Notes: a model not told the origin generated them from the letters alone. A stretch of 63,762 nucleotides of DNA from Actinomycetota bacterium (GCA_044867345.1 JBIOUU010000070.1:1-63762); one strand, 5' to 3'. Counted from the first letter of the stretch, positions 7,473 to 37,293 are shown. Made by a program: numbers and translations.

Positions 7473-7491
7473 GGTTGGTTCGGCGCCTCTC

Positions 7492-11852: not shown

Positions 11853-11860
11853 GGGTCGCC

Positions 11861-14141: not shown

Positions 14142-14146
14142 GGTGG

Positions 14147-15259: not shown

Positions 15260-16476
15260 TGAGGAGACTGATGTCCTGGGCAGTCCTCGTCGTGATCTTC
15301 ACCCTCCCCCTGGAGAACGTCGTGCAGGTCGGGGCAACCACTCGGATTAGCAAGGTCGTGGGGATCGGCGCCTCGGTGCTCTGGGCGCTCACCGTTGCCG
15401 TCACCGGGAGGATCCGAAAGCCGCTTCCGTTCCACTTGGCGGTCATCTCGTTCGCGTTGTGGAATCTGGCGAGCGTCTTCTGGACCACGAACCTCACGGC
15501 CACGCTGCTGCAGTCCTTCACGTACGTGCAGCTCGCCCTGCTCGTGTACATCCTTTGGGACACCCTCAGGACGTACCAGTCGCTCCGGGCCGCCATGCAG
15601 GCATATGTCCTGGGTGCGTGGGTGTCGGTGATCAGCCTGTTCATCGGGTACGAGCGCGCCGGGGCCGAGTACCTCGGCCGGCTCACCGTGGGTACGTTCG
15701 AGGTCAACGCCCTTGGCCTCGTCTTGGGGCTCGGGATCCCCTTCGCCTGGTATCTGGTCGTGGGCACGTCCTCCGGGCGCAGGCGTCGCCTCCTGGCCGC
15801 GGTGAACCTGGCCTATGTGCCGGCGGCAGTCATTGCCGTCATGCTGACGGGCTCACGGTCTGCGATCCTTTCCCTGCTCCCCGTCCTTGCCTACATCGCC
15901 TTGGGGCTGGTTCGCCTCGGCGTCTCGCGCCGAGCGCTCGCGGCATTCGTCCTGGCCGTCGTGGGCATCTTCCTGACGACCACCCCGCTGGTGCCGCAGA
16001 GAACCGTGGAACGCCTGACGAGCACGCCCACCGCCATCACCCAAGGCAACATCGGAGGGCGGCTCAACACGTGGCGTGACGCGTATGACACCTTCGCGGA
16101 GCACCCGGTCGTGGGTACCGGGAGCGGCACCTTCGTGGCCGCGACCACGCAGAGGGCGGCGCACAACGTCGCCTTGCGGTTCCTTGCCGAGTTGGGGCTC
16201 GTTGGGTTGGGACTGTTCGCACTGATCCTGGTCTTCACCGTCTCGAACGTGCGACACCAGCCGAAGGCTCTCGCCGGACTCTGGATCAGCCTCCTGTTGA
16301 TGTGGGCGATGGGGGCCGCCGTTCACAACTTCGAGGACAGGAAGCAGACGTGGCTGGTCTTCGGCCTCGCGGCCGTTGGAGCCGGCCTCTCCTCCGACGC
16401 GATCAGAGGGCAAACGACACCTTCGCTTCGGTTCGGCCGTCGGTCTCTGGTCGACGCGACGACGCGGGGCCCTTGA
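15259..16476 (+). CDS. O-antigen ligase/polymerase family membrane protein (Wzy-like)
   Basis: It is a polytopic membrane protein with an MLTGSRSAILSLL loop, typical of the Wzy_C family. Its ATG shares one base with the upstream stop (TGATG). Confidence 0.75.
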   Translation: MRRLMSWAVLVVIFTLPLENVVQVGATTRISKVVGIGASVLWALTVAVTGRIRKPLPFHLAVISFALWNLASVFWTTNLTATLLQSFTYVQLALLVYILWDTLRTYQSLRAAMQAYVLGAWVSVISLFIGYERAGAEYLGRLTVGTFEVNALGLVLGLGIPFAWYLVVGTSSGRRRRLLAAVNLAYVPAAVIAVMLTGSRSAILSLLPVLAYIALGLVRLGVSRRALAAFVLAVVGIFLTTTPLVPQRTVERLTSTPTAITQGNIGGRLNTWRDAYDTFAEHPVVGTGSGTFVAATTQRAAHNVALRFLAELGLVGLGLFALILVFTVSNVRHQPKALAGLWISLLLMWAMGAAVHNFEDRKQTWLVFGLAAVGAGLSSDAIRGQTTPSLRFGRRSLVDATTRGP

Positions 16477-16477
16477 C

Positions 16478-17443
16478 ATGCACGCGCTCGTCACCGGATC
16501 GGCCGGGTTCATCGGAAGCCATCTCACGGAGCGGTTGATCGCCGACGGCCATCGCGTGCGAGCGGTTGACTGTCTGACGCCCTTCTATGAGATCCAGCAG
16601 AAGCTGGAGAACCAACGAGTGATGGCCGCCCTGCCAACGTGCGAGTCGATCCAGGCTGACCTGCGGACGTGCGAGCTGACCGAGATCCTCGAGGGGATCG
16701 ATGTGGTCTTCCACCAGGCGGGCCAGCCGGGCGTCCGGCCATCATGGTCCTCAGGGTTCGCGTCGTACGTGGAGCACAACATCCTGGCTACGCAACGACT
16801 ACTGGAAGGCGTGCGGGAGATGGGCGTCGAGCGCTTCGTCTTCGCGTCCAGCTCCTCCGTCTACGGTAACGCGGCGTCCTTTCCAACGTCTGAAGGCGAC
16901 CTGCCGAGGCCCCACAGCCCCTACGGTGTGACCAAGCTGGCCGCGGAACACCTGTGCAACACCTACGCGCACAATTGGGGCGTGCCCACCGTCGCGCTTC
17001 GGTACTTCACCGTCTTCGGGCCACGGCAACGTCCCGACATGGCCATGCATCGACTGGTCGAAGCCAGCCTCGCCGGCGAGGCATTCCCACTCTACGGGGA
17101 TGGTCGCCAGGTGCGCGATTTCACATACGTAGACGATGTGGTGCGAGCCAACCTGTTGGCGGCATCCGTGGCCGTTCCGCCAGGTAGCGTGATCAACGTC
17201 GCAGGAGGTACGCAGGCGACGCTCCTCGAAGTCGCCGGCATCATCGGCGAAGAGCTCGGTCACCCCACGTCGTTCGACGTTCGATCATCGCAACCGGGCG
17301 ACGTCGAGCGGACGGCGGGCTCCATCGAGCGAGCCCAGGAGCTGTTGGGATGGCAGCCGATCGTGCCTCTTCGAGACGGGCTCGCTCGACAGGTGGCATG
17401 GCATGTCGAACGCGCTGCAGCGCGCACGGCCGCGGAGCCATGA
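16478..17443 (+). CDS. NAD-dependent epimerase/dehydratase, resembling UDP-glucuronate 4-epimerase
   Basis: It contains VTGSAGFIGSHL, YGVTK, and LRYFTVFGPRQRPDMA. Confidence 0.85.
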   Translation: MHALVTGSAGFIGSHLTERLIADGHRVRAVDCLTPFYEIQQKLENQRVMAALPTCESIQADLRTCELTEILEGIDVVFHQAGQPGVRPSWSSGFASYVEHNILATQRLLEGVREMGVERFVFASSSSVYGNAASFPTSEGDLPRPHSPYGVTKLAAEHLCNTYAHNWGVPTVALRYFTVFGPRQRPDMAMHRLVEASLAGEAFPLYGDGRQVRDFTYVDDVVRANLLAASVAVPPGSVINVAGGTQATLLEVAGIIGEELGHPTSFDVRSSQPGDVERTAGSIERAQELLGWQPIVPLRDGLARQVAWHVERAAARTAAEP

Positions 17444-18183
17444 GCACTCCGGCAGCGGGGAGGGTTGCGGGCCGAGGGACGGCGGCGACCATCGTGGAGT
17501 TCTGCGGCCTCCCCGGGGCGGGGAAGTCGTACATCGCCGGCCGAGTGCTCAGCACACTTTCGGATCACGGGGTCGCGGCTCGATTCCGCGATGATGGCGT
17601 CGGTCCGGATGTGGCAGGACCCCGCCGGATCTCTCGGAAGCTTCGGTGGGTCCTGGAGCAGGAAGTCGCCAGACCCGTCGCGTCCATGCGTGTTCTCGCA
17701 TGCATCGGCGCCGGACAGAGGGACTGGTCGAGCGCGATATCCAGGTCGGTGCAGTGGTTCGTCACGCAGGGTCTGCTCGATGCCGCGCGCCACACAGCCG
17801 GGGTCCACTTGTTCCAGGAAGGGATCTTGCAGGCTCTGTGGTCGATAGGTCTGCGTGGGGAGGTGAGGAAGCTTCTTCGCCTGTTGGAGGATGGCGCAGT
17901 CCCGTGGACCAGACCGGATCTGGTCGTGGTCGTCGATGCCTCGCCCGAAGCCATCCGGAGGCGTCTGCAGGCGAGGCATTCCCGCCACAGCCGAACGCAG
18001 GAGCTGCGGGGGGCCGAGCTGGACGTCGAGCTGCGGCGAGGCGCCGATCTCCTGGCACGGTTGGTCGGCTGGTGGGAGGAGAGCGGGGGCGGTGATCGAC
18101 TCCTGCGGGTCTCCAACGACTCGGATGAAGGTCCCGTGGTCGCTGAAGTCATTGGGTTCATCGAGGCACGACGAAGCGCTTGA
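17440..18183 (+). CDS. Stand-alone P-loop NTPase/kinase-like protein, same architecture as 11861-12586
   Basis: It has Walker A GLPGAGKSYIAGRVL and DLVVVVDASPEAIRRRLQAR. Its ATG overlaps the epimerase stop (ATGA). Confidence 0.6.
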   Translation: MSTPAAGRVAGRGTAATIVEFCGLPGAGKSYIAGRVLSTLSDHGVAARFRDDGVGPDVAGPRRISRKLRWVLEQEVARPVASMRVLACIGAGQRDWSSAISRSVQWFVTQGLLDAARHTAGVHLFQEGILQALWSIGLRGEVRKLLRLLEDGAVPWTRPDLVVVVDASPEAIRRRLQARHSRHSRTQELRGAELDVELRRGADLLARLVGWWEESGGGDRLLRVSNDSDEGPVVAEVIGFIEARRSA

Positions 18184-18229: not shown

Positions 18230-19225
18230 TCAGGGGACGGATACGGGGAAGCCTCGTTTCGACCGGACGGAGTAGCCGTACCGGTGAAGCAGCCGATAGG
18301 CGAGTACCCCCACGACGAATCGGTCGATCGCAGGGAGCTCCGTGGTCCAGCGCTCGTCCTTCCTGAGGACGATCTCGGTCGTGCTGAACCTGCCATGACC
18401 GTCCGGACCATGGACCGCCGGCAACTCGGTGGGGACCCAGGGCGAGGGCCCAGGTGAAGGCGCTTTCACGCCGATCAGGCTCGCAACGGCTCCGAGCGTC
18501 GAGGCTGGGTCGTCCGCGAATTGCTCGTACTGCACGCGGAAGGATCGTTCGGGCCCGTATCGCCGGCACACCGCCTCTGCCGTGGAGTGCGCCAACATCC
18601 AGTAGATGGTGGTCCGCAAAGCCTGCACCGGATGTGGTCCACCTGGGTCGGCCATGGTGCGCTGCCGCCTGGAGAGCACGACCCCACGCGGATCCCTGAC
18701 GACGTGCACGCAGTACGTGGAGCCTTCCGGCGCGAGGGCCAGCAGGGCCGCATCGCTTGCGTTCTTCGACGAGTCGACGATGACCGTTGCGCCGGACTCA
18801 GCGGCGAACGCCTGGTACAGGTCACGGAGGATCCTGAGATACCGGCCCCTCGCGCTGGAACCGCTAGGCGCCCGGCGCCGGCGTAAGATCCTGCGCGCGT
18901 GCCACCAGTCATGTCCGATCGGTGCGACCCGGCCTTGGAGGCGTGCGACCTCATCGGGTGATGGCTGCAGGTACGGAGCTCCATCCACGAGCAGCTTCGA
19001 CCAGATCTCACATTCGGGGAGCGACTTGCCGCACCCGCACGTGCCTCTCTCCCGTTGGAGCGCAGGGCCCCAGAGCCGCCTGAGCTCACCCCCGAAGGTC
19101 GCGCCGCCAAGCAGACCCAGGAACCGGCCGACGATGCTCGTTCCGCCGCGAGAGGAGCCCAAGATGTAGACGACGTCGATGCCCGACGGTGGTTCGGCCA
19201 CCCGACGAGCATAGCCGATGGCCAC
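18230..19225 (-). CDS. Sulfotransferase family protein
   Basis: It has a PAPS 5'-phosphosulfate-binding-like loop YILGSSRGGTS and a 3'-phosphate-binding-like VVRDPRGVV. A CGCG-x5-C-x2-W cysteine motif is also present. It is the only minus-strand biosynthetic gene in this part of the island. Confidence 0.75.
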   Translation of the reverse strand: MAIGYARRVAEPPSGIDVVYILGSSRGGTSIVGRFLGLLGGATFGGELRRLWGPALQRERGTCGCGKSLPECEIWSKLLVDGAPYLQPSPDEVARLQGRVAPIGHDWWHARRILRRRRAPSGSSARGRYLRILRDLYQAFAAESGATVIVDSSKNASDAALLALAPEGSTYCVHVVRDPRGVVLSRRQRTMADPGGPHPVQALRTTIYWMLAHSTAEAVCRRYGPERSFRVQYEQFADDPASTLGAVASLIGVKAPSPGPSPWVPTELPAVHGPDGHGRFSTTEIVLRKDERWTTELPAIDRFVVGVLAYRLLHRYGYSVRSKRGFPVSVP

Positions 19226-19373
19226 CTGGCGGGGCCCAGATGCTCGTCCGTTCGACGTACTTCCTCTACCGCGTTGACGGGGTGTCTGTACTGCGGTCCA
19301 GCACTACGTTGGAGTAGGTCTCTCGTTGCGTTTGCCTGCGACACACCTATGGCGGAAGCTCGATCGGAACCAA

Positions 19374-20936
19374 ATGGAACAACACGTGGGATCTTCAGGG
19401 GATCGTCGCCACGTCGCCGATGGGTTGTCGGCAACTTTGGCTGAGGACACCGCCGGGGAGCAGCCAATCGTCAGTGAGGGGACCTCGCTTGGCCTCGTCC
19501 GTATGTTGTGCGCCACGCTCGAGGAGCATGGCATCCTCTACTGTCATTGGAAGAGCAACTGGGAATTGGATCGCTCGGCCAGCGGTGACAACGACCTGGA
19601 TCTCCTGGTCAGCTCGCGCGATGCACACCGGTTCACGACCGTGCTCGGCCAGTTGGGGTTCAAGCAAGCCCGAGGTCGCTCTGCACAACGCTTCCCCGGC
19701 ATCCTTCATCACTACGGGCTCGATCCCGGTTCCGGCCGGCTCGTTCATGTGCATGCCCATCACCACCTCGTGATCGGCGACGACATGACGAAGAACTACC
19801 GGGTGCCCCTCGAGGATGCCTTCCTCGAATCGTCGACCCAGGGCCCTTTGTTCCGGATCCCTGCCCCAGAATTCGAGTTCATCCTCTTCGTCCTGCGCAT
19901 GGCGCTCAAGCATTGCACGCTCGACGCTGCACTCAGCACGCGACGGGCGCTGTCGAGGTCCGAGCGGAGGGAGTTGGAGCACCTGACCGACCGGGTAGAT
20001 CTCGGTCGAGTCCGGGAGGTGGTCCGGGCGCATCTGCCCTTGATCGACGAGGCGCTCTTCGACGATTGCATGCGGGCGTTGCGGCCGGGAACGGCCCGAT
20101 GGGCTCGGGTGAGCACAGCTCATCGGCTACAGCACAGCCTGGCGGCCTACGGGAGGCATGCCCAGGTCGTCGATGGAGCCCTCCGCGTGTGGCGCCGCCA
20201 ATCAAGGAGGCTGCGCAGACGCATCCTCGGGCCAACGACGACCAACACGCTGGATCGCGGCTGCGTGATCGCGATCGTGGGCGGGGACGGAGCCGGGAAG
20301 ACCTCAGCGGTGGAAGAGCTGTCCGCGTGGCTGGCGGCCAGCTTCCGTACCGAGCGGGTCCACCTGGGAAAGCCTCCTCGTTCCCTGCTGGCGCTCGTGG
20401 TGAGGAGATCCCTACGGATCGGACGTCTGCTCGGACTGGTATCGGGCACTCCGCTGAAGCCCGTTTCCGGCGTCTCCGATGCGCGGGACCAACCTGGAGG
20501 CGCCTGGCTCGTCGTCCGGGTGCTGAGGGCGAGGGATCGCTATCGAACGTACCTGCGGGCCACGCGCTCTGCCGCGCGGGGAGGGGTCGTCATCTCGGAT
20601 CGCTATCCGATGCCACAGATCCGGCTCATGGACCACCCTCATGGGGCCTCGCTCCTCGGGTCGCAGGGGCTGAACAGGGCGACGAGGAGCCTGGTGAGGC
20701 TCGAGCAGCGCTACTACGACAGGATCATGAGCCCGGACCTGGTGATCGTGCTCAGGGTCGATCCGGAGGTCGCCCTCCGCAGGAAGGGCGATGACGAGCC
20801 GGCGGCCGTCCGGGCTCGGAGCGCCGAAGTATGGAGCCTCGAATGGGGCGACACGGCGGTGCACATCGTCGATGCCGGCCGGTCCAAGGACGAGGTGCTC
20901 TCCGAAATCAAGTCGTGGGTCTGGCCGAGATTGTGA
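19374..20936 (+). CDS. Fusion protein: N-terminal nucleotidyltransferase-like domain plus C-terminal thymidylate-kinase-like P-loop domain
   Basis: The N-terminal part has HWKSN...GDNDLDLLV, a DxD nucleotidyltransferase-type signature. The C-terminal part has IVGGDGAGKTS, VISDRYP and PDLVIVLRVDPEVALRR, which are dTMP-kinase-like. The start may be ATG 19374 or an earlier or later codon. Confidence 0.6.
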   Translation: MEQHVGSSGDRRHVADGLSATLAEDTAGEQPIVSEGTSLGLVRMLCATLEEHGILYCHWKSNWELDRSASGDNDLDLLVSSRDAHRFTTVLGQLGFKQARGRSAQRFPGILHHYGLDPGSGRLVHVHAHHHLVIGDDMTKNYRVPLEDAFLESSTQGPLFRIPAPEFEFILFVLRMALKHCTLDAALSTRRALSRSERRELEHLTDRVDLGRVREVVRAHLPLIDEALFDDCMRALRPGTARWARVSTAHRLQHSLAAYGRHAQVVDGALRVWRRQSRRLRRRILGPTTTNTLDRGCVIAIVGGDGAGKTSAVEELSAWLAASFRTERVHLGKPPRSLLALVVRRSLRIGRLLGLVSGTPLKPVSGVSDARDQPGGAWLVVRVLRARDRYRTYLRATRSAARGGVVISDRYPMPQIRLMDHPHGASLLGSQGLNRATRSLVRLEQRYYDRIMSPDLVIVLRVDPEVALRRKGDDEPAAVRARSAEVWSLEWGDTAVHIVDAGRSKDEVLSEIKSWVWPRL

Positions 20937-20956
20937 AATGAGGTCGGTGGTGCGTC

Positions 20957-22420
20957 GTGCTCACGACTGATGTATTCGGCGCTTGGAACCGGGCAGGCAT
21001 CGAGTACTGCCTGTGGAAGGGATCCTTCCACCTCCAAGACTCCCTCGACGGACGCTCCGACCTCGATGTGCTGGTGAACGTGGAGCAGCTGGGTGATGCG
21101 CAGACGATCCTGTCCCGATTCGGGTGCCGGCCCAGTCGCGTCGCTCCGGCCCGGGTCGAGGTGGGCGTCGAGGACTTCCTTGGCGTCGAAGCGGAGTCGC
21201 GTCGGTTGGTGCACTTCCACGTCTATTCCAGACTGATCGTTGGGGAGAGTCACCTGGATCGGTTCCGACTGCCCTGGGAGCGATACGTTCTGAACACGCG
21301 CACGGTTATGGGCGACGTCTATGTGGCCGATCCCGCCGTCGAGGCGGCGCTGCTGCTGATCCGATCATCGCTCCGGATCTCCGGGCTCGGTCGGTTCCTG
21401 ATGCCACTGGGACTGGTCAATGCCGGGCTGCGGGAACAGCTCGGATGGCTGCTGGACCGGACCGATCCGAAGGTCGTCCTCGAGACGGTCCGAGCCTGGG
21501 CGCTGGGGGGGTCCGTGGGCAGGGCGCTCGAGCCGTGCCTCATGGAGGGGCCCACGCCCCGGAACCTCGCCCCGCTCCGCTCGGCTCTGACGGTCGCGTT
21601 GGCCTCGCAGTCGTCCGTGAGCGGGATCCGGGCAGTGACGCGCAGGTGGCGACGTACGCTCGGATGGGCCCGCCGGGGGGTCTACCGCCGTTTCCTCGAG
21701 CGCCCCGTCCTCCTGGGGAGGGGTGGGCGCGGGGGTGGTGTCCTGGTCGCGATCATCGGACCGGATGGCTCCGGGAAATCCACCCTCGCCCGTGACCTGC
21801 GACGTTGGTTCGCGCCGAAGCTCGACGTGGTGTACGTCTACATGGGGAGCGGCGACGGACCCTCGTCCCTGATCCGATGGCCGATGAAGGTCGCGCACCG
21901 CACGATCCTTCGCTCCGGTCACCATGGGAACGGGAGGGCCGTCCTGGAGCGGCGCCATCCCGGGATGATGGGAGCGGCCAAGACGGTCTGGGCGCTGGCC
22001 CTCGCTCGCGAGAAGGAACGAAAGCTTCGCAAGGCCATGGTGGCGCGCAACCGAGGGCTCCTCGTCATCTGCGACCGTTATCCGCAATCGCAATTCCCAG
22101 GTCAGAATGACGGGCCGTTCCTCCGCGGGTGGCGGACGTCTTCGTCACCGGTCCGCCGGTATCTGGCTGCCGTCGAGGGCCGCCCGTACCACCTGGCTGC
22201 CCGGTTCTCCCCCGACCTGATCCTCCGCCTCAACGTCGACGAGGCCGCCGCGTCGAGCCGTCGACCCGAGCTCGACCCCGGATACCTGCAGGCACGCATC
22301 GAGCTCGTTCAGGCGCTCACGTTCGTCGGGTCGCTCTTCGGGGTCGTCGACATCGACGCGACCCGACCCTATGCGCGGGTCTTCGCGGACGCCGCGGACG
22401 CGATCTGGTCACGTACCTAG
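20957..22420 (+). CDS. Paralog of 19374-20936 (nucleotidyltransferase-like plus thymidylate-kinase-like)
   Basis: It contains LWKGS...GRSDLDVLV, IIGPDGSGKST, VICDRYP and PDLILRLNVDEAAASSRR. It is collinear with the upstream paralog along its whole length. Confidence 0.6.
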   Translation: MLTTDVFGAWNRAGIEYCLWKGSFHLQDSLDGRSDLDVLVNVEQLGDAQTILSRFGCRPSRVAPARVEVGVEDFLGVEAESRRLVHFHVYSRLIVGESHLDRFRLPWERYVLNTRTVMGDVYVADPAVEAALLLIRSSLRISGLGRFLMPLGLVNAGLREQLGWLLDRTDPKVVLETVRAWALGGSVGRALEPCLMEGPTPRNLAPLRSALTVALASQSSVSGIRAVTRRWRRTLGWARRGVYRRFLERPVLLGRGGRGGGVLVAIIGPDGSGKSTLARDLRRWFAPKLDVVYVYMGSGDGPSSLIRWPMKVAHRTILRSGHHGNGRAVLERRHPGMMGAAKTVWALALAREKERKLRKAMVARNRGLLVICDRYPQSQFPGQNDGPFLRGWRTSSSPVRRYLAAVEGRPYHLAARFSPDLILRLNVDEAAASSRRPELDPGYLQARIELVQALTFVGSLFGVVDIDATRPYARVFADAADAIWSRT

Positions 22421-22435
22421 GCGAAAGGCGATCGG

Positions 22436-23614
22436 ATGGAGGTGAGTGGAACCGGGCGGGCGGGGATGCATGAGCCGGAGCGTCGGATTCGAGTGTTGCG
22501 CCTGCTGCTCGAGATCGTCGAGACGAACGCGCCATACCAGGAGCTTTCCCGGCCTTTGGCGAAAAAGCAGGACATCACGCTCTGCAGCTACTTCCGGGCC
22601 GCTGTAGAGGTGCCGGACGACCTGCGGCTGTTCGAGGGAGACGGGACGGTTCGGGGATTCTTCCGGGCCCTCGACAGCGCGCTTCGGGCGGGAGGATACG
22701 ACGTGATCCATGCAGAGACCCCACACGTCGCGTTCCTGTTCCTTCTCGGCCACGGGATGAACCGACGGCTCATGGCATCGACCGTGTTCACGGTCAGCAA
22801 CTCGTACCGGAGCTGGAAACCTCGGAACAAGCTCCTCCTTCTGCCCGCCTTCGCCTTCTTCCATCGAGTGGTCTGTTGCGGCCAGGCCTGCTTCGCCAGC
22901 TTCCCCGCGCCCTATCGCTGGCTGGCAGGCCGCCGGTACCGGTCCGTGCCGAACGGCGTCGATATCGACAGGATCGATGCGGCCATCGCCGAAGATCCTC
23001 CAGAGGCGGACGGGACTCCGTTCACCGTCGTCTCAGTCAGTCGCCTCGTCCCCATCAAGAACCACGTGACCGTCCTTCGTGCCTTCGCGCGTTGCCGAGA
23101 GGATGGTGACCGGCTCGTCTATGTGGGGGAGGGCTCAGAACGACGGTCCCTGTCCTCGGAGATCGCAGCGCAACGGCTCGAGGACGACGTCGAGTTGCTC
23201 GGGCTTCTCTCGCGGGAGCAGGTGTACCGGCGAATGGCAGGTGCGGACGTCTACATCTCCGCGTCATACGGGGAAGGACTGCCGATCGCGGTGCTAGAAG
23301 CAATGGTTGCTCGCCGCCCGGTCATCCTGTCCGACATACCGCCGCACCGCGAGATCGCCGAGGGAGCCGACTTCATCCCGCTCGTCGATCCGAAGGACGA
23401 AGATGGCTTCGCCACCGAGATCGCGCGGATACGCGACGTGCCGCCCGAAGCGCGAGCCGAGATCGGGGATCGCTGTCGGGCGCACGTACAGACACGCTTC
23501 GCGCTCGCCAACATGCACGCTGGATACGAAGGGATCTACTCGGAGCTGGTTGCTGAACGCCGGAACAAGGGAGGGCGACCGTCCGCCAGTCGGGAGGCCA
23601 GGACCGGGGTCTGA
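22436..23614 (+). CDS. Glycosyltransferase family 4
   Basis: The C-terminal GT-B half has SASYGEGLPIAVLEAMVARRPVILSDIPPHREI. Confidence 0.8.
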   Translation: MEVSGTGRAGMHEPERRIRVLRLLLEIVETNAPYQELSRPLAKKQDITLCSYFRAAVEVPDDLRLFEGDGTVRGFFRALDSALRAGGYDVIHAETPHVAFLFLLGHGMNRRLMASTVFTVSNSYRSWKPRNKLLLLPAFAFFHRVVCCGQACFASFPAPYRWLAGRRYRSVPNGVDIDRIDAAIAEDPPEADGTPFTVVSVSRLVPIKNHVTVLRAFARCREDGDRLVYVGEGSERRSLSSEIAAQRLEDDVELLGLLSREQVYRRMAGADVYISASYGEGLPIAVLEAMVARRPVILSDIPPHREIAEGADFIPLVDPKDEDGFATEIARIRDVPPEARAEIGDRCRAHVQTRFALANMHAGYEGIYSELVAERRNKGGRPSASREARTGV

Positions 23615-23615
23615 G

Positions 23616-25409
23616 TCAGATCGTGTACTCCAAATGCAGGACCGGGGGTGACCCGTTGTCGAAGGACTTGGCGGTCCTCGTTCCCGTACCGGTGACGATG
23701 AGCACCAGGGCGTTTCCGCTCGACCACCCCGGCCGGCTCACGATCTCCTGGATCAACGAAGACAGGTCGGGGGTCCGCTGGTCGGGTCCCGCGACGCCGA
23801 CGGTCGGCCAGGCCGGAGGGACCCAGCCCACGCTCGCCGTCGTCCGAGGCCGGGACGAGACGTTGCCGATGGCGATGGTGAAGGTGTCCGGGTTGTCGGA
23901 GGCCTGGCCCTGGATGGTGAGCGAGACGGGGCCGATGGTGATGTCCTTGGTCCGGAACTGGACCGAGGCGTTCACGATCGTCGCCCCGGCGGGTACCGAG
24001 ATCCCCGTGAACCGCAGCCCGATGGTCTGGTTCACATCGGCATCCACGATGTCGAGGTCGGAGTCCAACCGCACCTTCAGCCCGACGGGATCCTCCGCGT
24101 CGTCGGACGAGGAGCTGACCGCCACGTCCATGACCTGCGACCCGCCGGACGATGAGGTCACCGTCACGTCGTCCGAGTTCGTCAACGCGGAGTCGTCGCC
24201 GGTGAGTCGCAGCACGTAGGTTCCGGGATCGGAGAACGTCGCCGTGGTGGTGGGAGTGGTGGGATCGGCGAAGCTCACGGTCCCGGGGCCGCTCACCTTG
24301 GTCCACTGCGCGGTCGTCGTGCCCGGAGGGTTCGGCAGTCCGTCGTCGCTCACCGACCCGCTCAGGCTGGCGGCAGCGGGGAAGATCACCGACCGATCCG
24401 GGCCGGCGCTGACGACGGGAGCGTGGTTCTGCGGCAGTGAGGACCCGACGGAGAACTCGAACATCTTTCCGTCGTTCTCGTTCGGGTGCCCATTGTTGTC
24501 GACCCCCCGCTGCACGACGAACAGGTCGATGGTTCCCCCCTCCACGGTGCTGGGAGCGACCGCCACGTCCGAAACGCTGTGGGGATTCGGGCCTGAGATG
24601 TCGATCGTTCGGACCAGCGACCCACCCGCAGTGACTTCGTAGAGGATGTCCGTCCCCCGGTCACCGACCAGGAGCGTGTCACGGTACGGATCGTAGCCAA
24701 GTCCTTCAGCGTCCACGACCCCGTACTGGCCCACATCGAAGTGCGAGACCGCATCGTCCCCGGTGGGGGGCACGCCGTCGAAGATGCCGTTGTTCCCCGG
24801 CGAGATGCGGTACAGCTCCTTCCCCCCGCCGTCGGACGTGAACAGATCACCGGTTGCGGTATCGAACGCGATGTCCTCGGGATCGGTGTTCCCAAACGCC
24901 CGAGTGTCGAAGGACGATCGGATGTCATCGTCGGTGCCGTAGCGTCCGTCCATCCCAGGAAGCACGACGAACACCCTGCGCACCACGTCGTCGGAGATGA
25001 AAAGGCGTCCGGTCCCCGGGTCGAACCCGAGCCCGGTCGGTTCGTTGCTGTAGGACTTGACGGACCCGGTGTCCGTCTTACCACCGTTGCGGTCGAGCTC
25101 CCAGATATTGACACCGGCCCAGATGGACATCTCCTCCACCTCGGAGTCGCTCACGAGCAGTCGATCGCGGCCAGGGAGGTACGCGATCCCTGCGGAATCC
25201 GGAACCGGGGGGACGAGCTGGTACAGGTTGGTCGTGCGGACGAGCGTAGCTGTGACTGAGGGAGCGGCCGAGCTTGCGGGAGCAGGGAACCCGACAACCA
25301 AAGCTGCTGTCAGGGTTGCCATCCCAACGAATACGGACAAGAGTCGGCGCGTCGATATCACCCGCGCGAAAATCAGGCGGTCTCCAAGTCTTCGGAAGGC
25401 TATGGCCAA
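23616..25409 (-). CDS. Secreted multidomain protein: beta-propeller-like region, PKD-like domain, and a C-terminal domain of unknown function
   Basis: An N-terminal signal/TM segment is present (LLSVFVGMATLTAALVVGFPAPASSA). Repeated Asp/Gly-rich blade-like segments follow. The PKD-like block reads APVVSAGPDRSV...WTKVSGPGTVSF...GTYVLRLTGDD. Confidence 0.55.
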   Translation of the reverse strand: MAIAFRRLGDRLIFARVISTRRLLSVFVGMATLTAALVVGFPAPASSAAPSVTATLVRTTNLYQLVPPVPDSAGIAYLPGRDRLLVSDSEVEEMSIWAGVNIWELDRNGGKTDTGSVKSYSNEPTGLGFDPGTGRLFISDDVVRRVFVVLPGMDGRYGTDDDIRSSFDTRAFGNTDPEDIAFDTATGDLFTSDGGGKELYRISPGNNGIFDGVPPTGDDAVSHFDVGQYGVVDAEGLGYDPYRDTLLVGDRGTDILYEVTAGGSLVRTIDISGPNPHSVSDVAVAPSTVEGGTIDLFVVQRGVDNNGHPNENDGKMFEFSVGSSLPQNHAPVVSAGPDRSVIFPAAASLSGSVSDDGLPNPPGTTTAQWTKVSGPGTVSFADPTTPTTTATFSDPGTYVLRLTGDDSALTNSDDVTVTSSSGGSQVMDVAVSSSSDDAEDPVGLKVRLDSDLDIVDADVNQTIGLRFTGISVPAGATIVNASVQFRTKDITIGPVSLTIQGQASDNPDTFTIAIGNVSSRPRTTASVGWVPPAWPTVGVAGPDQRTPDLSSLIQEIVSRPGWSSGNALVLIVTGTGTRTAKSFDNGSPPVLHLEYTI

Positions 25410-25636
25410 CTTCGACTATCGGACGATACGGGTCGGTCTGCCGATCGGGCATCCGCCGAATGACGTACGTTTCATACGGCGGTTTCCTCCATCGCCCGGG
25501 CCTAGATGGTAAAGCACCATCCGCAGTACCGCATTTACGGCATTCCGCGCATGTTCGCGGCCATGTACCCGCGCGAGACTCGATCGGCTAACGATCGGTG
25601 CTTCCACATCGTCATCCTGCCGGGAGGCGCGGACGC

Positions 25637-26995
25637 ATGGCATTGCGCAGGTCGCTTGAGGTCTCCGTCCCCGCCGACTTGAGTATCTCCTCACGTCTCC
25701 CATCGGCGCTTGTGCCGTGCACTGACGCCCTCGCCCTCCTGTTGGCAGCGGCCGCAACAGGCTTTCGTCCCACAGCCTTCGGGTACGGAGTCCTGGCGGT
25801 GATCGCCCTCAACATCGCCCCCCCTGTATCCAGCCGGATCAACCCTCGACTCGGCGACGACTTCGGATGGCTGCTCGGCCGACTCGGAACCTGCATGCTC
25901 GTCGTCTTGCCGATCGCAACTCTCGTCCATGAGCGAGCAGGCGAACTCCTCCTTCTCGCTGTCTCGGCCACCGTCCTGGTCGCCACGAGCAGAGGCGTTG
26001 CCTACGGCATCCAGCGGCGCTTACGGGCCAGGGGCTTGGTCTCAGAGCGTGCCCTCATCGTGGGTGCCGGAGACGTGGGCGTCGAACTGGCCCGGATCCT
26101 CGATGGACACCCCGAGTACGGCCTGCGGCCCATCGGTTTCCTGGGGGATCCCGGAGATCGAGCCCTGCCCATCCCGACACTCGGCGACAGCGAGGACCTC
26201 GAACAGGTCGTCCGGCAACAGGACGTGAGGCGCGTCGTCGTGGGCTACGGGGGTGGGGAGGATCGTCAGCTCGTCGGGATCCTCAGGCGCTGCGAGAGCC
26301 TGCCGGTCGAGATCCTCGTCGTGCCACGGCTCTTCGAGTTGAACGCCGTACCGATCGGCGCCTCTCGGGACGATGCTTGGGGGATCCCGCTCGTCCGTGT
26401 GCGTCGCCCGACCCTGCAGCCGTCGGCGCGTATCGCCAAGCGGGTCTTCGATCTGGTCGTGGGGTCCCTGATCGTCGTGCTCGTCTCACCCGTCATGTTG
26501 GTTGCCGCCTGGGCAGTCCGGCTCTCGAGTCCGGGCCCGCTCCTCTTCCGGCAACGTCGCATCGGGTTCGATGGACGAGAGTTCGAGATCCTGAAGTTCC
26601 GGAGCATGCGGGTGAACGACGACTCGGACACACATTGGGCGGTTGACCACGATGACCGCATCACGCCGGCCGGACGGCTCCTCCGTCGCACCGGCATCGA
26701 CGAGCTGCCCCAGCTGTTCAATGTGCTGAAGGGCCAGATGTCGCTCGTCGGTCCGAGGCCGGAGCGCCCCCTCTTCGCGGAACGGTTCGGCACCGCGGTA
26801 CCGGGATACAGGGACCGTCACCGGGTTCCCGTCGGCCTGACCGGCTGGGCACAGATCCACGGCCTGCGGGGCGACACGTCCATACCGGACCGGGCTCGCT
26901 TCGACAACGACTACATCGAGCATTGGTCCTTGTGGCTGGATGTGATGATCATCTTGCGAACGATCTGGCTGGTCCTCAAGGGCACCGGACGGTGA
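25637..26995 (+). CDS. Priming polyprenyl-phosphate sugar-phosphate transferase (WbaP/exopolysaccharide phosphoglycosyltransferase family)
   Basis: N-terminal TM helices precede the C-terminal catalytic domain, which has KRVFDLVVG, FRQRRIG, KFRSM, DELPQLFNVLKGQMSLVGPRPERP. An ATG at 25637 is preceded by GGGAGG. Confidence 0.85.
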   Translation: MALRRSLEVSVPADLSISSRLPSALVPCTDALALLLAAAATGFRPTAFGYGVLAVIALNIAPPVSSRINPRLGDDFGWLLGRLGTCMLVVLPIATLVHERAGELLLLAVSATVLVATSRGVAYGIQRRLRARGLVSERALIVGAGDVGVELARILDGHPEYGLRPIGFLGDPGDRALPIPTLGDSEDLEQVVRQQDVRRVVVGYGGGEDRQLVGILRRCESLPVEILVVPRLFELNAVPIGASRDDAWGIPLVRVRRPTLQPSARIAKRVFDLVVGSLIVVLVSPVMLVAAWAVRLSSPGPLLFRQRRIGFDGREFEILKFRSMRVNDDSDTHWAVDHDDRITPAGRLLRRTGIDELPQLFNVLKGQMSLVGPRPERPLFAERFGTAVPGYRDRHRVPVGLTGWAQIHGLRGDTSIPDRARFDNDYIEHWSLWLDVMIILRTIWLVLKGTGR

Positions 26996-27885
26996 CGTCC
27001 TCCACGACCCGCACGTCGATCGGGCAGCTCCCGAACTTCCTCATCATCGGGGCCATGAAGGCCGGCACGACCAGCCTCTATCACTATCTCCGTGCCCATC
27101 CGCAGGTGTTCATGTCCTCCGTGAAGGAGCTCGACTTCTTCGCTCATGACCCGAACGGCAGCCGCGGTTTGGATTGGTATCGGAGGCAATTCGCAGCGGC
27201 TGAGGCGGGCTCGGTGGCGATCGGGGAAGCATCCACGATCTATACGAAGTTCCCACGGTTTCCAGGGGTTCCCGAACGGATCGCAGCACAGGTTCCGAAC
27301 GTCAGGCTGATCTACGTCATTCGCCATCCGATCGAGCGGATCCGTTCCCACTATCAGCATCAGGTGGCCGTGGGCGCGGAGCGTGCACCGTTCGAGCGAG
27401 CCGTCTTCGACGATCCCATCTACCTCGACTACAGCCGATACGCGATGCAGATCGACCAGTACCTTCCGTACTTCCCTCAGGATCGCTTGCTGGTCATCAC
27501 CTCGGAGGACCTCCGACACGAACGACTGGGAACGGTCCGCCGGGTCTATGAGTTCCTCGGCGTGGAGCCCGACTACACTCCTCCGAACTTGGATCGAGAG
27601 TTCTACCGGTCGGGCGAGCGGGTGACATATCCACCGCTCGCTTGGAGGATCCGGAGGACCCTGAAGAGACACCTCCCGGCGAGCAAGCGGGCCAAGGAAT
27701 TGGTGGATGCGCCGTTCGCTCGATGGCTGAGACGCCCCCTTCCCGGGAAGGAGGGAGCAAGCCCCTCCCGTGCCCAATCGATCCCGGAGGAGGTCCGCGA
27801 GCCGCTCGTTCGGCTCCTCGAGGAAGACGTGCGGCGCCTCCGCGGCTACGTGGGCCCTGGATTCGACGGCTGGGGGATCGCATGA
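26992..27885 (+). CDS. Sulfotransferase domain protein
   Basis: It has the PSB loop FLIIGAMKAGTTSLYHYL and the 3'PB region IYVIRHPIERIRSHY. A GTG at 26992 overlaps the stop of the priming transferase (GTGA). Confidence 0.85.
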   Translation: MTSSTTRTSIGQLPNFLIIGAMKAGTTSLYHYLRAHPQVFMSSVKELDFFAHDPNGSRGLDWYRRQFAAAEAGSVAIGEASTIYTKFPRFPGVPERIAAQVPNVRLIYVIRHPIERIRSHYQHQVAVGAERAPFERAVFDDPIYLDYSRYAMQIDQYLPYFPQDRLLVITSEDLRHERLGTVRRVYEFLGVEPDYTPPNLDREFYRSGERVTYPPLAWRIRRTLKRHLPASKRAKELVDAPFARWLRRPLPGKEGASPSRAQSIPEEVREPLVRLLEEDVRRLRGYVGPGFDGWGIA

Positions 27886-27936: not shown

Positions 27937-29208
27937 GTGAAGCCTGAACCGACGACGAGCGGCGCCGAAGCCCCCATGCTTTGGACCCTCACGGTCCTGG
28001 TGGTCTTCCTGGTCGCAGCGATCGCCGCTCCGCAGTCCACCCAGGCCTCCACCACCTGCGGGACGTCGAATGGGCACACGCTCTGCCTCACGGTGCCGAA
28101 CGGTCCTCTGACGGGCGCCATCGTCGTCAAGATCACGAACGTCTCGAACAAGGGAACGGTGATCGGCACCTGGCTCCCCTCGGGGCCGTCGGCGACCAAG
28201 CTGATCACCAAGTTCAAGCCGTCGCCTGAGACCGGCGATTACTCCTTCGTGTGGCCCACGCAGAAATATCTGGATGCGTCGGGGGTGCTCAGGATCCAGC
28301 ACGGTTCCGCGTCATCCACCCCCATCGACGCCGCCGTGACCCTGTCCAATGGGAACGCCACGGACTTCCAGCACTCCCCGAACGATTGGACCAGCTTTCT
28401 TCCCGGACCTTGGACTTCCTCCACGGATCCAGTCGTAGCCGCCGCAGGTGACGGCGCCGCCGACGAGCCCGACCCGAACGCGACCGCAGCCGGCATCGCG
28501 GACGCCAGTCCGGCCCTGTTTCTCTACCTTGGCGATGTCTACGAGCTGGGCACGTTCACGGAGAACCTGAATCACTACGGGGCCTCTGCGCTCGACGGCA
28601 CGCCAGGCACGCTGTGGGGGGCGCTGGCGCGCATCACCCAGCCAACGGTGGGGAACCATGAGGCATCCCATCTCGTGGACTGGATGGACTATTGGCACGG
28701 TCATCCCTATCTCTCGTCCTTCACATTCGGTGGAGTGCTGTTCCTCGACCTGAACTCCTCGAAATCGTTCTCCGTGGGCAGCACCCAATACAAGTTCGTC
28801 CAGGATGCGCTGGCGAATGCGCCTCCATGCGTCGTGGCCTTCTGGCACATCCCCGTGAAGACGTCGACCTCGAGCAGCCGGCTTCCGATGTGGAGCCTGC
28901 TTGCGAGCAATGGAGGCGACATCGTCCTGGAGGGCCACTCGCACAGCATGGCCGAGTACAAGCCCCTCGATGCAAACCTCCAGCTCGGCGGACACATGGT
29001 CCAGCTCATCTCGGGGGCCGGGGGGCACGCCATGGGGAGCGGTATCACCGACTCTGAGGGCCGGTTGCAGTGGGCGCTGGCAAAGACGCCCGGGGCCGTG
29101 TACCTCACGCTGCAGGGTGCGGCCGGAGGTGGGCGCGCCACCAAGATCGGCTGGAGCTTCCAGGACACGCACCACGCGGTTCTGGAAACGGGCTCCGTCA
29201 CCTGCTGA
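27937..29208 (+). CDS. Exported calcineurin-like metallophosphoesterase
   Basis: It has a signal peptide (LWTLTVLVVFLVAAIAAPQSTQA) and the metallophosphoesterase motifs GDVYE, GNHE, and GHSH. Confidence 0.7.
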   Translation: MKPEPTTSGAEAPMLWTLTVLVVFLVAAIAAPQSTQASTTCGTSNGHTLCLTVPNGPLTGAIVVKITNVSNKGTVIGTWLPSGPSATKLITKFKPSPETGDYSFVWPTQKYLDASGVLRIQHGSASSTPIDAAVTLSNGNATDFQHSPNDWTSFLPGPWTSSTDPVVAAAGDGAADEPDPNATAAGIADASPALFLYLGDVYELGTFTENLNHYGASALDGTPGTLWGALARITQPTVGNHEASHLVDWMDYWHGHPYLSSFTFGGVLFLDLNSSKSFSVGSTQYKFVQDALANAPPCVVAFWHIPVKTSTSSSRLPMWSLLASNGGDIVLEGHSHSMAEYKPLDANLQLGGHMVQLISGAGGHAMGSGITDSEGRLQWALAKTPGAVYLTLQGAAGGGRATKIGWSFQDTHHAVLETGSVTC

Positions 29209-29270: not shown

Positions 29271-30302
29271 CTATGCGGGATACCCATGCCGGATAAGCCA
29301 GTCGTGCCTCGCCCGCTGGTAGATATTCATGTCCCGGCTCTGCCTCACACCCTGGGGCAAGATGCCCGGATGATCGAGGTCGGTGAACTTCCCGTCACCG
29401 TCCCCGTCGTACCGGGGACCGAGGACGATGACGACGTTCTCGTAGGTACCGTCCGGCCATGTTTTCGTATCTTGCACCCGGATAGGGGTTTCCTCGTAGT
29501 AGACGAGGCAGTTTCGCATCACGACCGACCCGCCTCCGCTGAAGTACTTGAAGATTCGACCGTGCCCCAAGCCGTCTGGCGCCTTGTCGTTGGGGAACGC
29601 CTTGAACGCGAAGATGCAATCCTCGATGGTCGTTACCGCGTCCGGGTTCGGGGTCGCTTGCCCCAGTGAGACGCCCATGTGGATCCCATCGAACAGGCAG
29701 TCCTTGATGAACCCGGTCAATGTCTCATCGTTCTCGACGGCGTCGTCCCGGATCGTGGTGAAGTAGGCGCCCTCCAACAGGAAGACGGCACCAGCTGGAT
29801 CGCCCTCAGGAGCACGAGGGCGGAACCCATCGAACACGTTGTCGGCCCGAACGTCGTATGCGGCGGAGTATTCCCGGCCCGTCAGAAGCAGGCCGGCTCC
29901 CACCGACTCGAACGTCGCGTACACCTCCTCCCACGTGATGTCCTTGGGGAGTTGACCGAGGACGGTTCCGCCGACCAGGACCGTGCCGACACCGGGCTTG
30001 TCCTCCCCGAACGACAGGGGGAAGGCCGTCGGGTGGGGGTAGGCGGTCGAGATGAGACCGCGCAGATCGTAGGTCGTCTCCGGCGGGGGCGAGCCGATCC
30101 GGTACTGGGCATCGAGAAGCCCTGACCTCACGACCAGGTTCGGCCGCTCCAAAGCCTGCTGCCTCGTGGGAAAGGGGAGCGCGCCGGACTGCGCGCGCGG
30201 ACGCAGGGTCTTCACTGCAGGTGCGCATGACCCCATACCGAGGCTGGCGAGGAGCCACCCTCCCGCCGCCGCGGTTTCGATGAGGAACCTCCGTCGATTC
30301 AC
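29271..30302 (-). CDS. Putative Tat-exported lipoprotein of unknown function
   Basis: The N-terminus MNRRRFLIETAAAGGWLLASLGMGSC combines a twin-arginine motif with a lipobox-like GSC. I recognise no family for the rest of the protein. Confidence 0.5.
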   Translation of the reverse strand: MNRRRFLIETAAAGGWLLASLGMGSCAPAVKTLRPRAQSGALPFPTRQQALERPNLVVRSGLLDAQYRIGSPPPETTYDLRGLISTAYPHPTAFPLSFGEDKPGVGTVLVGGTVLGQLPKDITWEEVYATFESVGAGLLLTGREYSAAYDVRADNVFDGFRPRAPEGDPAGAVFLLEGAYFTTIRDDAVENDETLTGFIKDCLFDGIHMGVSLGQATPNPDAVTTIEDCIFAFKAFPNDKAPDGLGHGRIFKYFSGGGSVVMRNCLVYYEETPIRVQDTKTWPDGTYENVVIVLGPRYDGDGDGKFTDLDHPGILPQGVRQSRDMNIYQRARHDWLIRHGYPA

Positions 30303-30495: not shown

Positions 30496-31881
30496 CTATC
30501 CCGGCCATCCAGAGCCAGGTTTGGCTCCGATCCGCCCGCGGGGGATATCCCCCTCCCATGTCTCCGACGGGTCGATCGGCACCGGTGACTGACCGGTCGG
30601 GTAATAGGAGAAGCCAGCCTCGCGCATCTCGGTGGGGTCGAAGACGTTTCGGCCGTCGACCACCAGGGGATAGGCCATCACGTCTCGTAACGCAGCCAGG
30701 TCCAGGTGGCGAAACTCGTCCCAATCGGTGGCGATCGCCACACAATGGGCATCGGCGGCTGCCGAATAGGCGTCGGGGGCGATCTCCAGCTCGGGGAGCT
30801 CGTCCTTGGCGTTCGCCGATGCCAGTGGGTCGTAACCGATGACGGAGGCACCGGACTGAAGGAGCCGGCGAGCGAGCGAGAGGGCGGGTGAGAGGCGCAC
30901 ATCGTCCGTGCCCGGCTTGAAAGCCAAGCCGAACACGGCGACCCGCTTCTCGTCGAGGATCCAGAGTGCGTCCTCCACCTTGGCCGCGATGGCCTCGACC
31001 GATTCATGGTTCACCCGATCCACTTCCCGCAGAAGCCCGAAGTCGTACCCGACTCGAGCGGCCAGCCGCTCGAGGATCACGACGTCCTTGGGGAAGCAGT
31101 AGCCCCCGTAACCGAGGCCGGCCGCGAGGAAGGAACGGCCGATCCTGGCGTCTGAGCCCATCACGTTGGTGACGGCCCTGATGTCGGCGCCCAAGCGCTC
31201 GCAGATCCGGGCCAGCGCGTTGGCGTACGAGATCTTGAGTGCCAGGAATGCGTTGCTTGCGGCCTTCGCGAGCTCGGCGGTCCTGATGTCGGTCTCGATG
31301 AGGGGAATCCCGTTCCGAGTCAACGGCTCGTAGAGACGGCGCAACAAGATCGCCGCGCGCTCGGACTCGACCCCGATGAGGATCCGGTCGGGCTCGAGCG
31401 CATCACGCAACGCCGTACCCTCCCTGAGAAACTCGGGGTTGCATGCCACGTTGAACCGTCTGCCATCGCCCTCTCGAGCCAGCACGAGCCGAAGCCGATC
31501 GGCCGTTCCGGCCGGGACGGTTGACTTCTCCACCACGACCACGCCATCCCGTGCGTGGTGCGCGACGGCCGTGGCCGACCGCTCCATGGCCAGGAGGTTG
31601 GCCTCCCCGTCGGGGCCCGCGGGGGTCCCCACGCAGATGAACACGATCGCGGCCGCATGCATCGCCTCGGGCGGCGCGTCGGTGAACGTCAGGCGGCCCG
31701 CGCTCAGCTCCCGCGCCAGAGCCTCGTTGAGTCCGGGTTCGTGGAAGGGCGCGATCCCCTGTTGGAGGAGTGAGATCTTCTCGCCGTCAACGTCGAAACC
31801 GACGGCCTCATGCCCCATGCTCGCCAAGGCAACGCACGTAACGACACCCACGTGACCGGTGCCGATGACCGCGACCTTCAT
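30496..31881 (-). CDS. ugd: UDP-glucose 6-dehydrogenase
   Basis: It contains MKVAVIGTGHVGVVTCVALA and the catalytic region GGYCFPKD. The ATG at 31881 is chosen over the longer track ORF. Confidence 0.9.
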   Translation of the reverse strand: MKVAVIGTGHVGVVTCVALASMGHEAVGFDVDGEKISLLQQGIAPFHEPGLNEALARELSAGRLTFTDAPPEAMHAAAIVFICVGTPAGPDGEANLLAMERSATAVAHHARDGVVVVEKSTVPAGTADRLRLVLAREGDGRRFNVACNPEFLREGTALRDALEPDRILIGVESERAAILLRRLYEPLTRNGIPLIETDIRTAELAKAASNAFLALKISYANALARICERLGADIRAVTNVMGSDARIGRSFLAAGLGYGGYCFPKDVVILERLAARVGYDFGLLREVDRVNHESVEAIAAKVEDALWILDEKRVAVFGLAFKPGTDDVRLSPALSLARRLLQSGASVIGYDPLASANAKDELPELEIAPDAYSAAADAHCVAIATDWDEFRHLDLAALRDVMAYPLVVDGRNVFDPTEMREAGFSYYPTGQSPVPIDPSETWEGDIPRGRIGAKPGSGWPG

Positions 31882-32040: not shown

Positions 32041-32067
32041 TTAGCACTCGCGAGGGGCGAGTGCTAA
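32041..32067 (+). promoter_or_regulatory. CIRCE operator (HrcA binding site)
   Basis: It is a perfect match to the consensus: TTAGCACTC-N9-GAGTGCTAA. Confidence 0.95.
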
Positions 32068-32109
32068 ACCGCCCCACAGGACGCCACCGAGCATGGCAAG
32101 GAGGAAGGA

Positions 32110-34096
<1,987 letters not shown>

Positions 34097-37206: not shown

Positions 37207-37293
37207 ATCCCCTCCTCGCGGTCCGACCCTTAGGTGTCGGCCGTACGGAGGGGGTCCTTAACCGGGGCGGTGAGGGAACTGGAGGACTCGGCC

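Follow-up and report, generated by a model that had tools for sequence, protein, structure and literature searches.

Here we describe a gene cluster of an Actinomycetota bacterium that probably directs the synthesis of a sulfated surface or secreted polymer. The cluster lies in a stretch of 63,762 nucleotides (GCA_044867345.1 JBIOUU010000070.1:1-63762), which was analysed at its full length and is called the window below. It forms a glycan island of about 27 kb (5.2-31.9 kb) bounded by BldD and groES. Two sulfotransferase genes of different families, ST1 (18230-19225, minus strand) and ST2 (26992-27885, plus strand), are embedded in the island, and the best reading of the predicted gene functions is a Wzx/Wzy-dependent heteropolysaccharide locus. 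Because two true sulfotransferase genes lie in a glycan cluster, the polymer is probably sulfated. This reading is also preferred because homologous clusters pair sulfotransferases with genes of sulfate activation or transport.

Sulfated polysaccharides are important in industry and in biology. To our knowledge, among bacteria they are often called nearly confined to cyanobacteria. The window and its relatives show the gene logic of sulfated polysaccharides in soil Actinomycetota.

Two unlike sulfotransferases

Because the window is 65-70% G+C, genes were called from the G+C content of third codon positions (GC3) together with Pfam matches. Both sulfotransferase genes show coding-frame bias in GC3. 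ST2 encodes a protein of 297 amino acids (aa) of the Sulfotransfer_1 family that resembles the heparan sulfate 3-O-sulfotransferases (3-OST) and N-deacetylase/N-sulfotransferases (NDST). It matches the Pfam models Sulfotransfer_1 (E = 5.6e-17, 62.4 bits, cut-off 22) and Sulfotransfer_3 (E = 1.2e-15, 58.9 bits, cut-off 27) and carries the segments IIGAMKAGTTSLY and IRHPIERIRSHY. The family is large (3752 matches in the first search), with members at 55-65% identity across Actinomycetota, Gemmatimonadota, Gammaproteobacteria and Planctomycetes. A phmmer search of the Protein Data Bank (PDB) with ST2 finds the bacterial sulfotransferase 3rnl (9.5e-20) and 3-OST-1 (2.2e-18), as well as 3-O-sulfotransferases 3 and 5 (3-OSTs about 1e-16 to 1e-18) and NDST1.

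Residues K23, E46, R111 and S119 of ST2 align with the 5'-phosphosulfate binding (5'-PSB) lysine, the glutamate of ENEVHFF, and the 3'-phosphate binding (3'-PB) arginine and serine of 3-OST-1. The functional roles implied by these names are those that we take the 3-OST-1 residues to have. Across 14 diverse homologs K23, K45, R111 and S119 do not vary, and E46 is nearly invariant (at least 90%). The predicted structure of ST2 (mean local confidence, pLDDT, 79.3) retrieves 3rnl in Foldseek (7.8e-14) and superposes on heptasaccharide-bound 3-OST-1 (3uan) with a TM-score of 0.77 and a root mean square deviation of 3.4. The 3-OSTs, NDST and 3rnl share with ST2 the fold, the 5'-PSB lysine, the position of the catalytic glutamate, and the 3'-PB arginine and serine, although identity to these structures in the Foldseek alignments is 21-29%. 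His92 of 3-OST-1 is replaced by Asp48, and ST2 has an added C-terminal helical region (residues about 200-297) in comparison with 3-OST and NDST.

The GTG start of ST2 at 26992 overlaps the TGA stop (26993-26995) of the gene for a priming polyprenyl-phosphate glycosyl-1-phosphate transferase (PGT; 25598-26995, plus strand; Bac_transf 2.1e-66, CoA_binding_3 1.1e-12), and the junction reads GGTGAC. An identical overlap of 4 nucleotides is present in the gene calls of two relatives (loci L088 and L089 of the comparison below), which supports the original prediction that ST2 is translationally coupled to the priming transferase.

ST1 encodes a protein of 331 aa of the Sulfotransfer_3 family (E = 7.7e-11, 43.1 bits, cut-off 27) and scores 16.3 bits against Sulfotransfer_1, under the threshold of 22. 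It has a predicted fold like that of the tyrosylprotein sulfotransferases (TPST) and the CurM sulfotransferase domain. YILGSSRGGTS and VRDPRGVV are both present. The family found by homolog search comprises 92 matches, all PF13469. A family profile was required to find structural relatives in the PDB, as the single sequence gave a marginal match only (E = 0.41). The profile matches the sulfotransferase domains of OLS (4.5e-18) and CurM (3.6e-13) and tyrosylprotein sulfotransferases (about 1e-8 to 5e-10). The AF2 model has a pLDDT of 90.8 and a predicted TM-score (pTM) of 0.88. In Foldseek all of its top 50 PDB matches are sulfotransferases or sulfotransferase-fold enzymes, the best being TPST2 (2.4e-6).

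The ST1 segments GSSRGGT, GEL and VRDPRGVVLS align with PRSGTT, GEETR and VRDGRASVHS of TPST and are kept across 30 homologs, among which R26/G28, E47, K154, R177-D178-R180 and S185 are conserved. The register of the catalytic glutamate against E98/E99 of TPST is uncertain by one residue. TPST and the CurM and OLS domains share with ST1 the fold, the R-x-G-T/S PSB loop, a glutamate in a GE segment and the RD-x-R...S 3'-PB motif. They differ from it in sequence (identity 13-18%, TM-scores 0.46-0.63), and ST1, unlike them, sits in a glycan-synthesis context. As a separate observation, members of the ST1 family carry, following the PSB loop, an insertion that the TPST and CurM sulfotransferases lack; three of its cysteines are invariant (C63, C65, C72; CGCG...C..W). 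His272 is also invariant in the family, and the four residues may form a metal site.

ST1 and ST2 were predicted to be unrelated, and they show no similarity in BLASTP (best E-value 1.4). Both score above Pfam cut-offs, both carry the family motifs, the residues for binding 3'-phosphoadenosine-5'-phosphosulfate (PAPS) are conserved, and both models match sulfotransferases first. Neither ST1 nor ST2 matched a model in an NCBIfam scan, and the same holds for the Wzx-like protein and for the PF01663 protein described below. To judge from the motifs and the models, ST1 and ST2 look like functional PAPS-dependent sulfotransferases.

Related clusters and a probable source of PAPS

Relatives of ST2 were sought with one genome per species. 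At least 565 stretches encode such relatives. From these, 79 loci were retained (numbered with the prefix L), of which 45 are at least 15 kb long, and custom hidden Markov models were applied to those 45. Genes for Wzy, Wzx, PGT, glycosyltransferases of family GT4 or a bacterial tyrosine kinase (BY-kinase) occur in 38 of the 45 and a PGT gene in 23. Two to five sulfotransferases are present in 13 and Sat or CysC likewise in 13. In six loci (L009, L016, L017, L018, L020 and L037) an open reading frame (ORF) for ATP sulfurylase lies directly before or after the ST2 homolog. The expected co-occurrence of the sulfotransferases with Wzx, Wzy, PGT and sulfate-activation genes in related genomes is thus found.

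Among Geodermatophilaceae in culture, and in many genomes of uncultured organisms, homologous clusters encode between one and six sulfotransferases. Genes for ATP sulfurylase, adenosine-5'-phosphosulfate (APS) kinase, a sulfate transporter or a CysQ-like phosphatase are often found next to them. The cultured genera with ST2 relatives include Blastococcus, Modestobacter and Geodermatophilus, and homologous clusters are carried by Blastococcus capsensis BMG 804, Modestobacter marinus CPCC 205245, Geodermatophilus ruber DSM 45317 and Geodermatophilus sp. SYSU D01176. In Blastococcus capsensis the order, labelled by Pfam, is CysN-like, TauE, epimerase, PGT, Wzy, Wzx, sulfotransferase, GT4, PKD. 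Geodermatophilus has the same PGT-Wzy-Wzx-ST2-GT4 core together with genes for a LytR-CpsA-Psr (LCP) ligase (LytR_cpsA_psr), a histidine kinase and a LuxR-type regulator.

Homologs of ST1 also lie within glycan clusters that hold GT4, Wzy, Wzx-like and further sulfotransferase genes (L001, L028, L029, L083, L084, L085, L088 and L089). One locus with an ST1 homolog combines GT4, Wzy, a second sulfotransferase, a CysQ-like gene, a bifunctional Sat/CysC and a sulfate symporter. The close relatives L088 and L089, from forest and farmland soils, retain ST1, PGT, ST2 and the UDP-glucose dehydrogenase gene (UGD). Two loci are packed with sulfotransferase genes, L084 (GCA_037024495.1) having six and L085, which adjoins groES, having four; in both they are near GT4, NTP_transf_5 and P-loop genes. 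This gene content suggests heavily sulfated glycans in some lineages.

The window encodes an APS kinase, CysC (36068-36622, plus strand; APS_kinase 6.6e-61; NCBIfam NF002059 258.7 bits, cut-off 244), which makes PAPS from APS. The gene is downstream of groES/groEL, 8 kb from ST2. Its start is overlapped by the stop of a translationally coupled gene for a cytoplasmic phosphodiesterase of the AlkP superfamily (PF01663; 34677-36071, plus strand; Phosphodiest 6.3e-47). The 120 best matches show 75-89% identity to the pair, which is highly conserved in many soil Actinomycetota and was noted in L007, L024, L086 and L087. In L087, a relative without the island, the pair stands downstream of groEL. 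Membership of cysC in the island was therefore rejected. Both genes are conserved backbone and not island cargo, and the nearness of cysC reflects the place where the island is inserted. The original prediction identified cysC and its place beyond groESL correctly, but the gene does not serve as island-linked support.

No ATP sulfurylase was found in the 63.8-kb window. The backbone cysC can supply PAPS. Actinobacterial sulfate assimilation, as known from Mycobacterium, uses an APS reductase, and PAPS serves there mainly for sulfotransferases. The PF01663 protein may act on 3'-phosphoadenosine-5'-phosphate (PAP), APS or PAPS; a PDB sequence search with it returned nothing useful.

The proposed pathway, its precedents and its alternatives

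In the proposed pathway the Bac_transf enzyme would prime undecaprenyl phosphate. Three GT4 enzymes, all encoded on the plus strand (10572-11852, likely start GTG 10572, Glyco_trans_1_4 9.5e-32; 14159-15259, Glyco_trans_1_4 2e-34; 22436-23614, Glycos_transf_1 1.3e-25), would lengthen the repeat unit. A UDP-glucose/GDP-mannose dehydrogenase at the right island edge, a predicted source of uronic-acid precursor (30496-31881, minus strand; UDPG_MGDP_dh_N 7.1e-52 plus the central and C-terminal domains), and an NAD-dependent nucleotide-sugar epimerase/dehydratase (16478-17443, plus strand; Epimerase 1.7e-56) point to a uronic acid in this unit. ST2 and ST1 would use cytoplasmic PAPS to sulfate the lipid-linked oligosaccharide at the inner face of the membrane, and the coupling of ST2 to the priming enzyme would fit an early acceptor. 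The PAPS would come from the backbone cysC, with ATP sulfurylase encoded elsewhere. A divergent Wzx-like protein (12579-14141, plus strand) would then flip the unit. A Wzy-type polymerase of the O-antigen ligase-like kind (15262-16476, plus strand; Wzy_C 1.3e-16, 61.2 bits, cut-off 31.7; multiple predicted transmembrane segments) would polymerise it. A polysaccharide co-polymerase, in which a Wzz-type chain-length determinant is fused to a BY-kinase-like ATPase (7492-9528, minus strand; Wzz 1.5e-13, AAA_31 2.6e-10, weak GNVR), would govern chain length and export. Since PAPS is cytoplasmic, sulfation would take place on the lipid-linked repeat unit before flipping, which is also the model for synechan (PMC8205485). 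The analysis shows which genes are present, the folds and motifs of the sulfotransferases, the PGT/ST2 overlap and the conservation of synteny; from there we infer the acceptor, the sequence of steps and sulfation itself.

This kind of cluster is not new. An actinomycete precedent was published in 2026 and such clusters are common in related genomes, so the window is one more example and brings no new principle. The original prediction knew of no characterised actinobacterial equivalent, a statement now overtaken by the wps-1 cluster of Actinoplanes missouriensis (WpsA-K plus AMIS_7390; June 2026), whose authors predicted a sulfated polysaccharide (PMC13390465). wps-1 encodes two sulfotransferases of different families, Wzx, Wzy and Wzz and a kinase-like protein, with an adjacent sulfate adenylyltransferase/APS kinase gene. 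Knockouts of sulfotransferase and activation genes impair sporangium formation (PMC13390465). The window resembles it as an actinomycete Wzx/Wzy/Wzz cluster with two unlike sulfotransferases and a kinase-like gene, and in both polymer sulfation is predicted from the genes. The classes of the sulfotransferases can be compared through the InterPro labels in PMC13390465, as distinct from the sequences themselves. By these labels WpsH is heparan-sulfate-sulfotransferase-like, the class of ST2, whereas WpsB is Gal/GlcNAc/GalNAc-sulfotransferase-like, a class other than that of ST1 (Sulfotransfer_3/TPST-like). Unlike the window, wps-1 encodes a methyltransferase, a GH26 hydrolase and glycosyltransferases of families GT2 and GT26, and its kinase is protein-kinase-like, whereas that of the window is thymidylate-kinase-like. 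Because ST2 relatives occur in cultured Blastococcus, Modestobacter and Geodermatophilus, the question raised in Actinoplanes is directly testable in culturable organisms.

Synechan of Synechocystis PCC 6803 (xss) is a proven sulfated exopolysaccharide (EPS) (PMC8205485). Its cluster shares with the window the Wzx/Wzy/co-polymerase pathway, a two-component regulator linked to it, and a pair of sulfotransferases from distinct subfamilies (PMC8205485). It differs in being cyanobacterial (Gram-negative, with a required outer membrane polysaccharide export (OPX) protein), in its eight glycosyltransferases and STAND regulator, and in having no reported nucleotidyltransferase-kinase genes. The sulfated capsule of Vibrio sp. 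KMM 8419 has a solved polymer structure, and its locus contains sulfotransferase and cysNDC genes (PMC11641403). The first of these hallmarks, sulfotransferase genes in a glycan cluster, is present in the window, where ST1 and ST2 lie among glycosyltransferase, Wzy and PGT genes. For the second, genes of PAPS synthesis in the locus, the window has only the backbone cysC and no ATP sulfurylase, and some homologous clusters carry Sat/CysC. The Vibrio system further differs in belonging to the Gammaproteobacteria, in export by an ABC transporter (Kps) and in having cysNDC inside the cluster. For Cobetia marina KMM 1449 the structure of a sulfated capsule is reported, and its biosynthesis was analysed from the genome (PMC11766843); this organism is also a gammaproteobacterium, unlike the actinobacterium of the window. 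Our literature search found no sulfated EPS for Geodermatophilaceae and no sulfated wall glycopolymers for actinobacteria. For a Streptomyces EPS a colorimetric "sulfate content" is reported, without structure or genes.

Several points weigh against a sulfated Wzx/Wzy-dependent polymer. Sulfation in this organism and in the homologous actinobacterial clusters is a prediction from genes. The island itself holds no ATP sulfurylase, CysQ or sulfate transporter gene, and the nearby cysC and its PF01663 partner are backbone. The nearest structures to ST1 are protein-tyrosine and polyketide sulfotransferases and include no carbohydrate ones. The flippase assignment of 12579-14141 is weak. This protein has about 12 hydrophobic segments and no Pfam or NCBIfam match, and it aligns weakly but collinearly over its full length with the Polysacc_synt Wzx of Geodermatophilaceae clusters in hhalign (E = 3.3e-4, probability 38%). 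Its homologs occur in 8 ST2 loci at 41-52% identity, and it is a probable divergent Wzx. Finally, because four kinase-like proteins encoded in the island are unexplained, the polymer may bear other or additional anionic groups.

The most probable alternative keeps the sulfation chemistry and changes the product. It is possible, although the less probable outcome, that the polymer is a capsule, a wall-anchored glycopolymer or a surface-protein glycan and not a released exopolysaccharide. Fused Wzz/BY-kinases such as that of the window are typical of Gram-positive capsule loci. The homologous Geodermatophilus cluster is flanked by the LCP ligase gene, and the glycan site that holds the island varies in cargo between relatives, as capsule and O-antigen loci do. 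However, the island of the window yielded no LCP ligase gene, and released and bound polymers are inseparable from sequence alone. Of the predicted sulfated exopolysaccharide, the profiles, residues, models and synteny support a Wzx/Wzy-made glycan decorated by two sulfotransferases, and the product may be either released or cell-bound.

It is unlikely that ST1 acts on a non-glycan acceptor (a protein or peptide tyrosine, a lipid or a small molecule) and leaves the glycan to ST2. The best matches of ST1 (TPST1/2, tick TPST, the CurM and OLS domains, mycobacterial Stf1 and Stf9) and its separate transcription from the opposite strand would suit such a role. However, its homologs lie in the eight glycan clusters listed above, its identity to TPST is just 14-18%, and no precursor-peptide or lipid-synthesis genes are nearby. 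A polymer free of sulfate, with inactive or passenger sulfotransferases, would agree with an island that lacks a sulfate-activation gene, but is very improbable given the catalytic and PAPS-binding residues that are invariant or nearly so across homologs, the GC3 coding bias of both genes, the conserved PGT/ST2 overlap, and a backbone APS kinase whose PAPS would, as generally in actinobacteria, serve mainly sulfotransferases.

Setting of the island and accompanying genes

The island is flanked by actinobacterial housekeeping genes. These are udg, tsaE, tsaB, rimI, tsaD, an epimerase gene and BldD on the left, and groES/groEL, the PF01663 phosphodiesterase gene, cysC, guaB3, guaA, pcrA, sucD, purN, purH, folD, metF, gltA and mdh on the right. 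The island has a lower GC3 (0.75-0.84) than the flanks (about 0.90). The interval between tsaD and groES (about 4.9-32.1 kb of the window) differs in cargo between relatives. It is almost empty in L087, where tsaD, an epimerase gene, an unknown gene, groES, groEL, the PF01663 gene and cysC follow without a glycan island, and in L086 a different glycan gene set lies upstream of groES. The tsaD-groES site is thus a variable glycan locus. Sulfotransferase-rich clusters fill it in the window, L085 and L088.

Four P-loop proteins are encoded in the island, two small ones and two fusions to a nucleotidyltransferase. The first small protein (11801-12586, plus strand; kinase-like, Walker A, weak AAA_16/AAA_33) has a stop that overlaps the start of the Wzx-like gene, and its homologs occur in L023, L029 and L035. 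The second (17440-18183, plus strand; AAA_33 4.3e-5) is thymidylate-kinase-like, its family profile matching thymidylate kinases in the PDB at 4e-5, and its start forms an ATGA overlap with the epimerase stop. The fusions are paralogs on the plus strand (19374-20936, in an ORF that opens at 19326, and 20957-22420) with 28% identity over the full length (BLAST, E = 1e-30). Each of about 500 aa, they join an NTP_transf_5-like nucleotidyltransferase domain with an invariant DxD to a thymidylate-kinase-like domain with Walker A and cDRYP motifs. A PDB sequence search with the protein returned nothing useful; the family profile matches thymidylate kinases at 6.6e-8. At E<=1e-30 the family numbers 891 representatives. 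It includes proteins joined to Wzx flippases (Polysacc_synt_3, 2.7e-76) and others joined to a small P-loop domain like the two small proteins of the window. In several phyla its genes share glycan clusters with one to six sulfotransferase genes. The four proteins were considered as cryptic sulfotransferases or APS kinases and rejected as such; they have a canonical Walker A (GxxGxGKS/T), their profiles match thymidylate kinases, and their resemblance to APS kinase is confined to the P-loop.

Speculatively, and with low confidence, the two fusions and two small kinases could form an undescribed glycan-modification module that acts at the Wzx flippase on the lipid-linked repeat unit, perhaps adding a phosphate-linked substituent. 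The polymer would then carry phosphate decoration in addition to sulfate. A kinase and a nucleotidyltransferase of lasso-peptide clusters together yield a phospho-glycosylated serine (PMC8498205), an analogy that offers a lead only.

The left edge of the island encodes regulators on the plus strand. A sensor histidine kinase with GAF and HATPase_c domains (5176-6780; HATPase_c 9.4e-23) is accompanied by two LuxR-type response regulators (6696-7472, Response_reg 1.3e-22, GerE 1.7e-19; 9676-10455, Response_reg 2e-22, GerE 1.9e-16). Homologs of the histidine kinase and LuxR genes accompany ST2 clusters in L007, L013, L014, L019, L024, L057 and L081.

Three proteins of the island appear to be exported. 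The first is a PKD-domain protein (23616-25409, minus strand; K319L-like_PKD 2.8e-10; N-terminal signal-like segment) with homologs in L001, L005, L016, L080, L081, L088 and L089. The second is a metallophosphoesterase with a signal peptide (27937-29208, plus strand; Metallophos 6.5e-5, 23.9 bits, cut-off 21.5), of which syntenic copies occur in L035, L088 and L089. The third, of unknown function (29271-30302, minus strand), has an RRRF Tat-like signal, a lipobox-like cysteine and no Pfam match; L088 and L089 have unknown genes at the syntenic place. The proposal that such exported enzymes process the polymer finds no backing in this analysis.

Two genes were masked by longer ORFs and revealed by frame-specific GC3 and Pfam. 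The GT4 gene at 14159-15259 lies within the ORF 13559-15259, and the first LuxR-type regulator (6696-7472) was hidden by 6729-7892 on the minus strand, which was rejected as a gene in its favour. The minus-strand ORF 32041-33063 was rejected as a shadow of groES/groEL. Between cysC and guaB3 two conserved genes without a Pfam family, one with weak coiled-coil-like matches, occupy 36640-38346 on the minus strand. L086 has genes of similar size (186 and 342 aa) at the same position.

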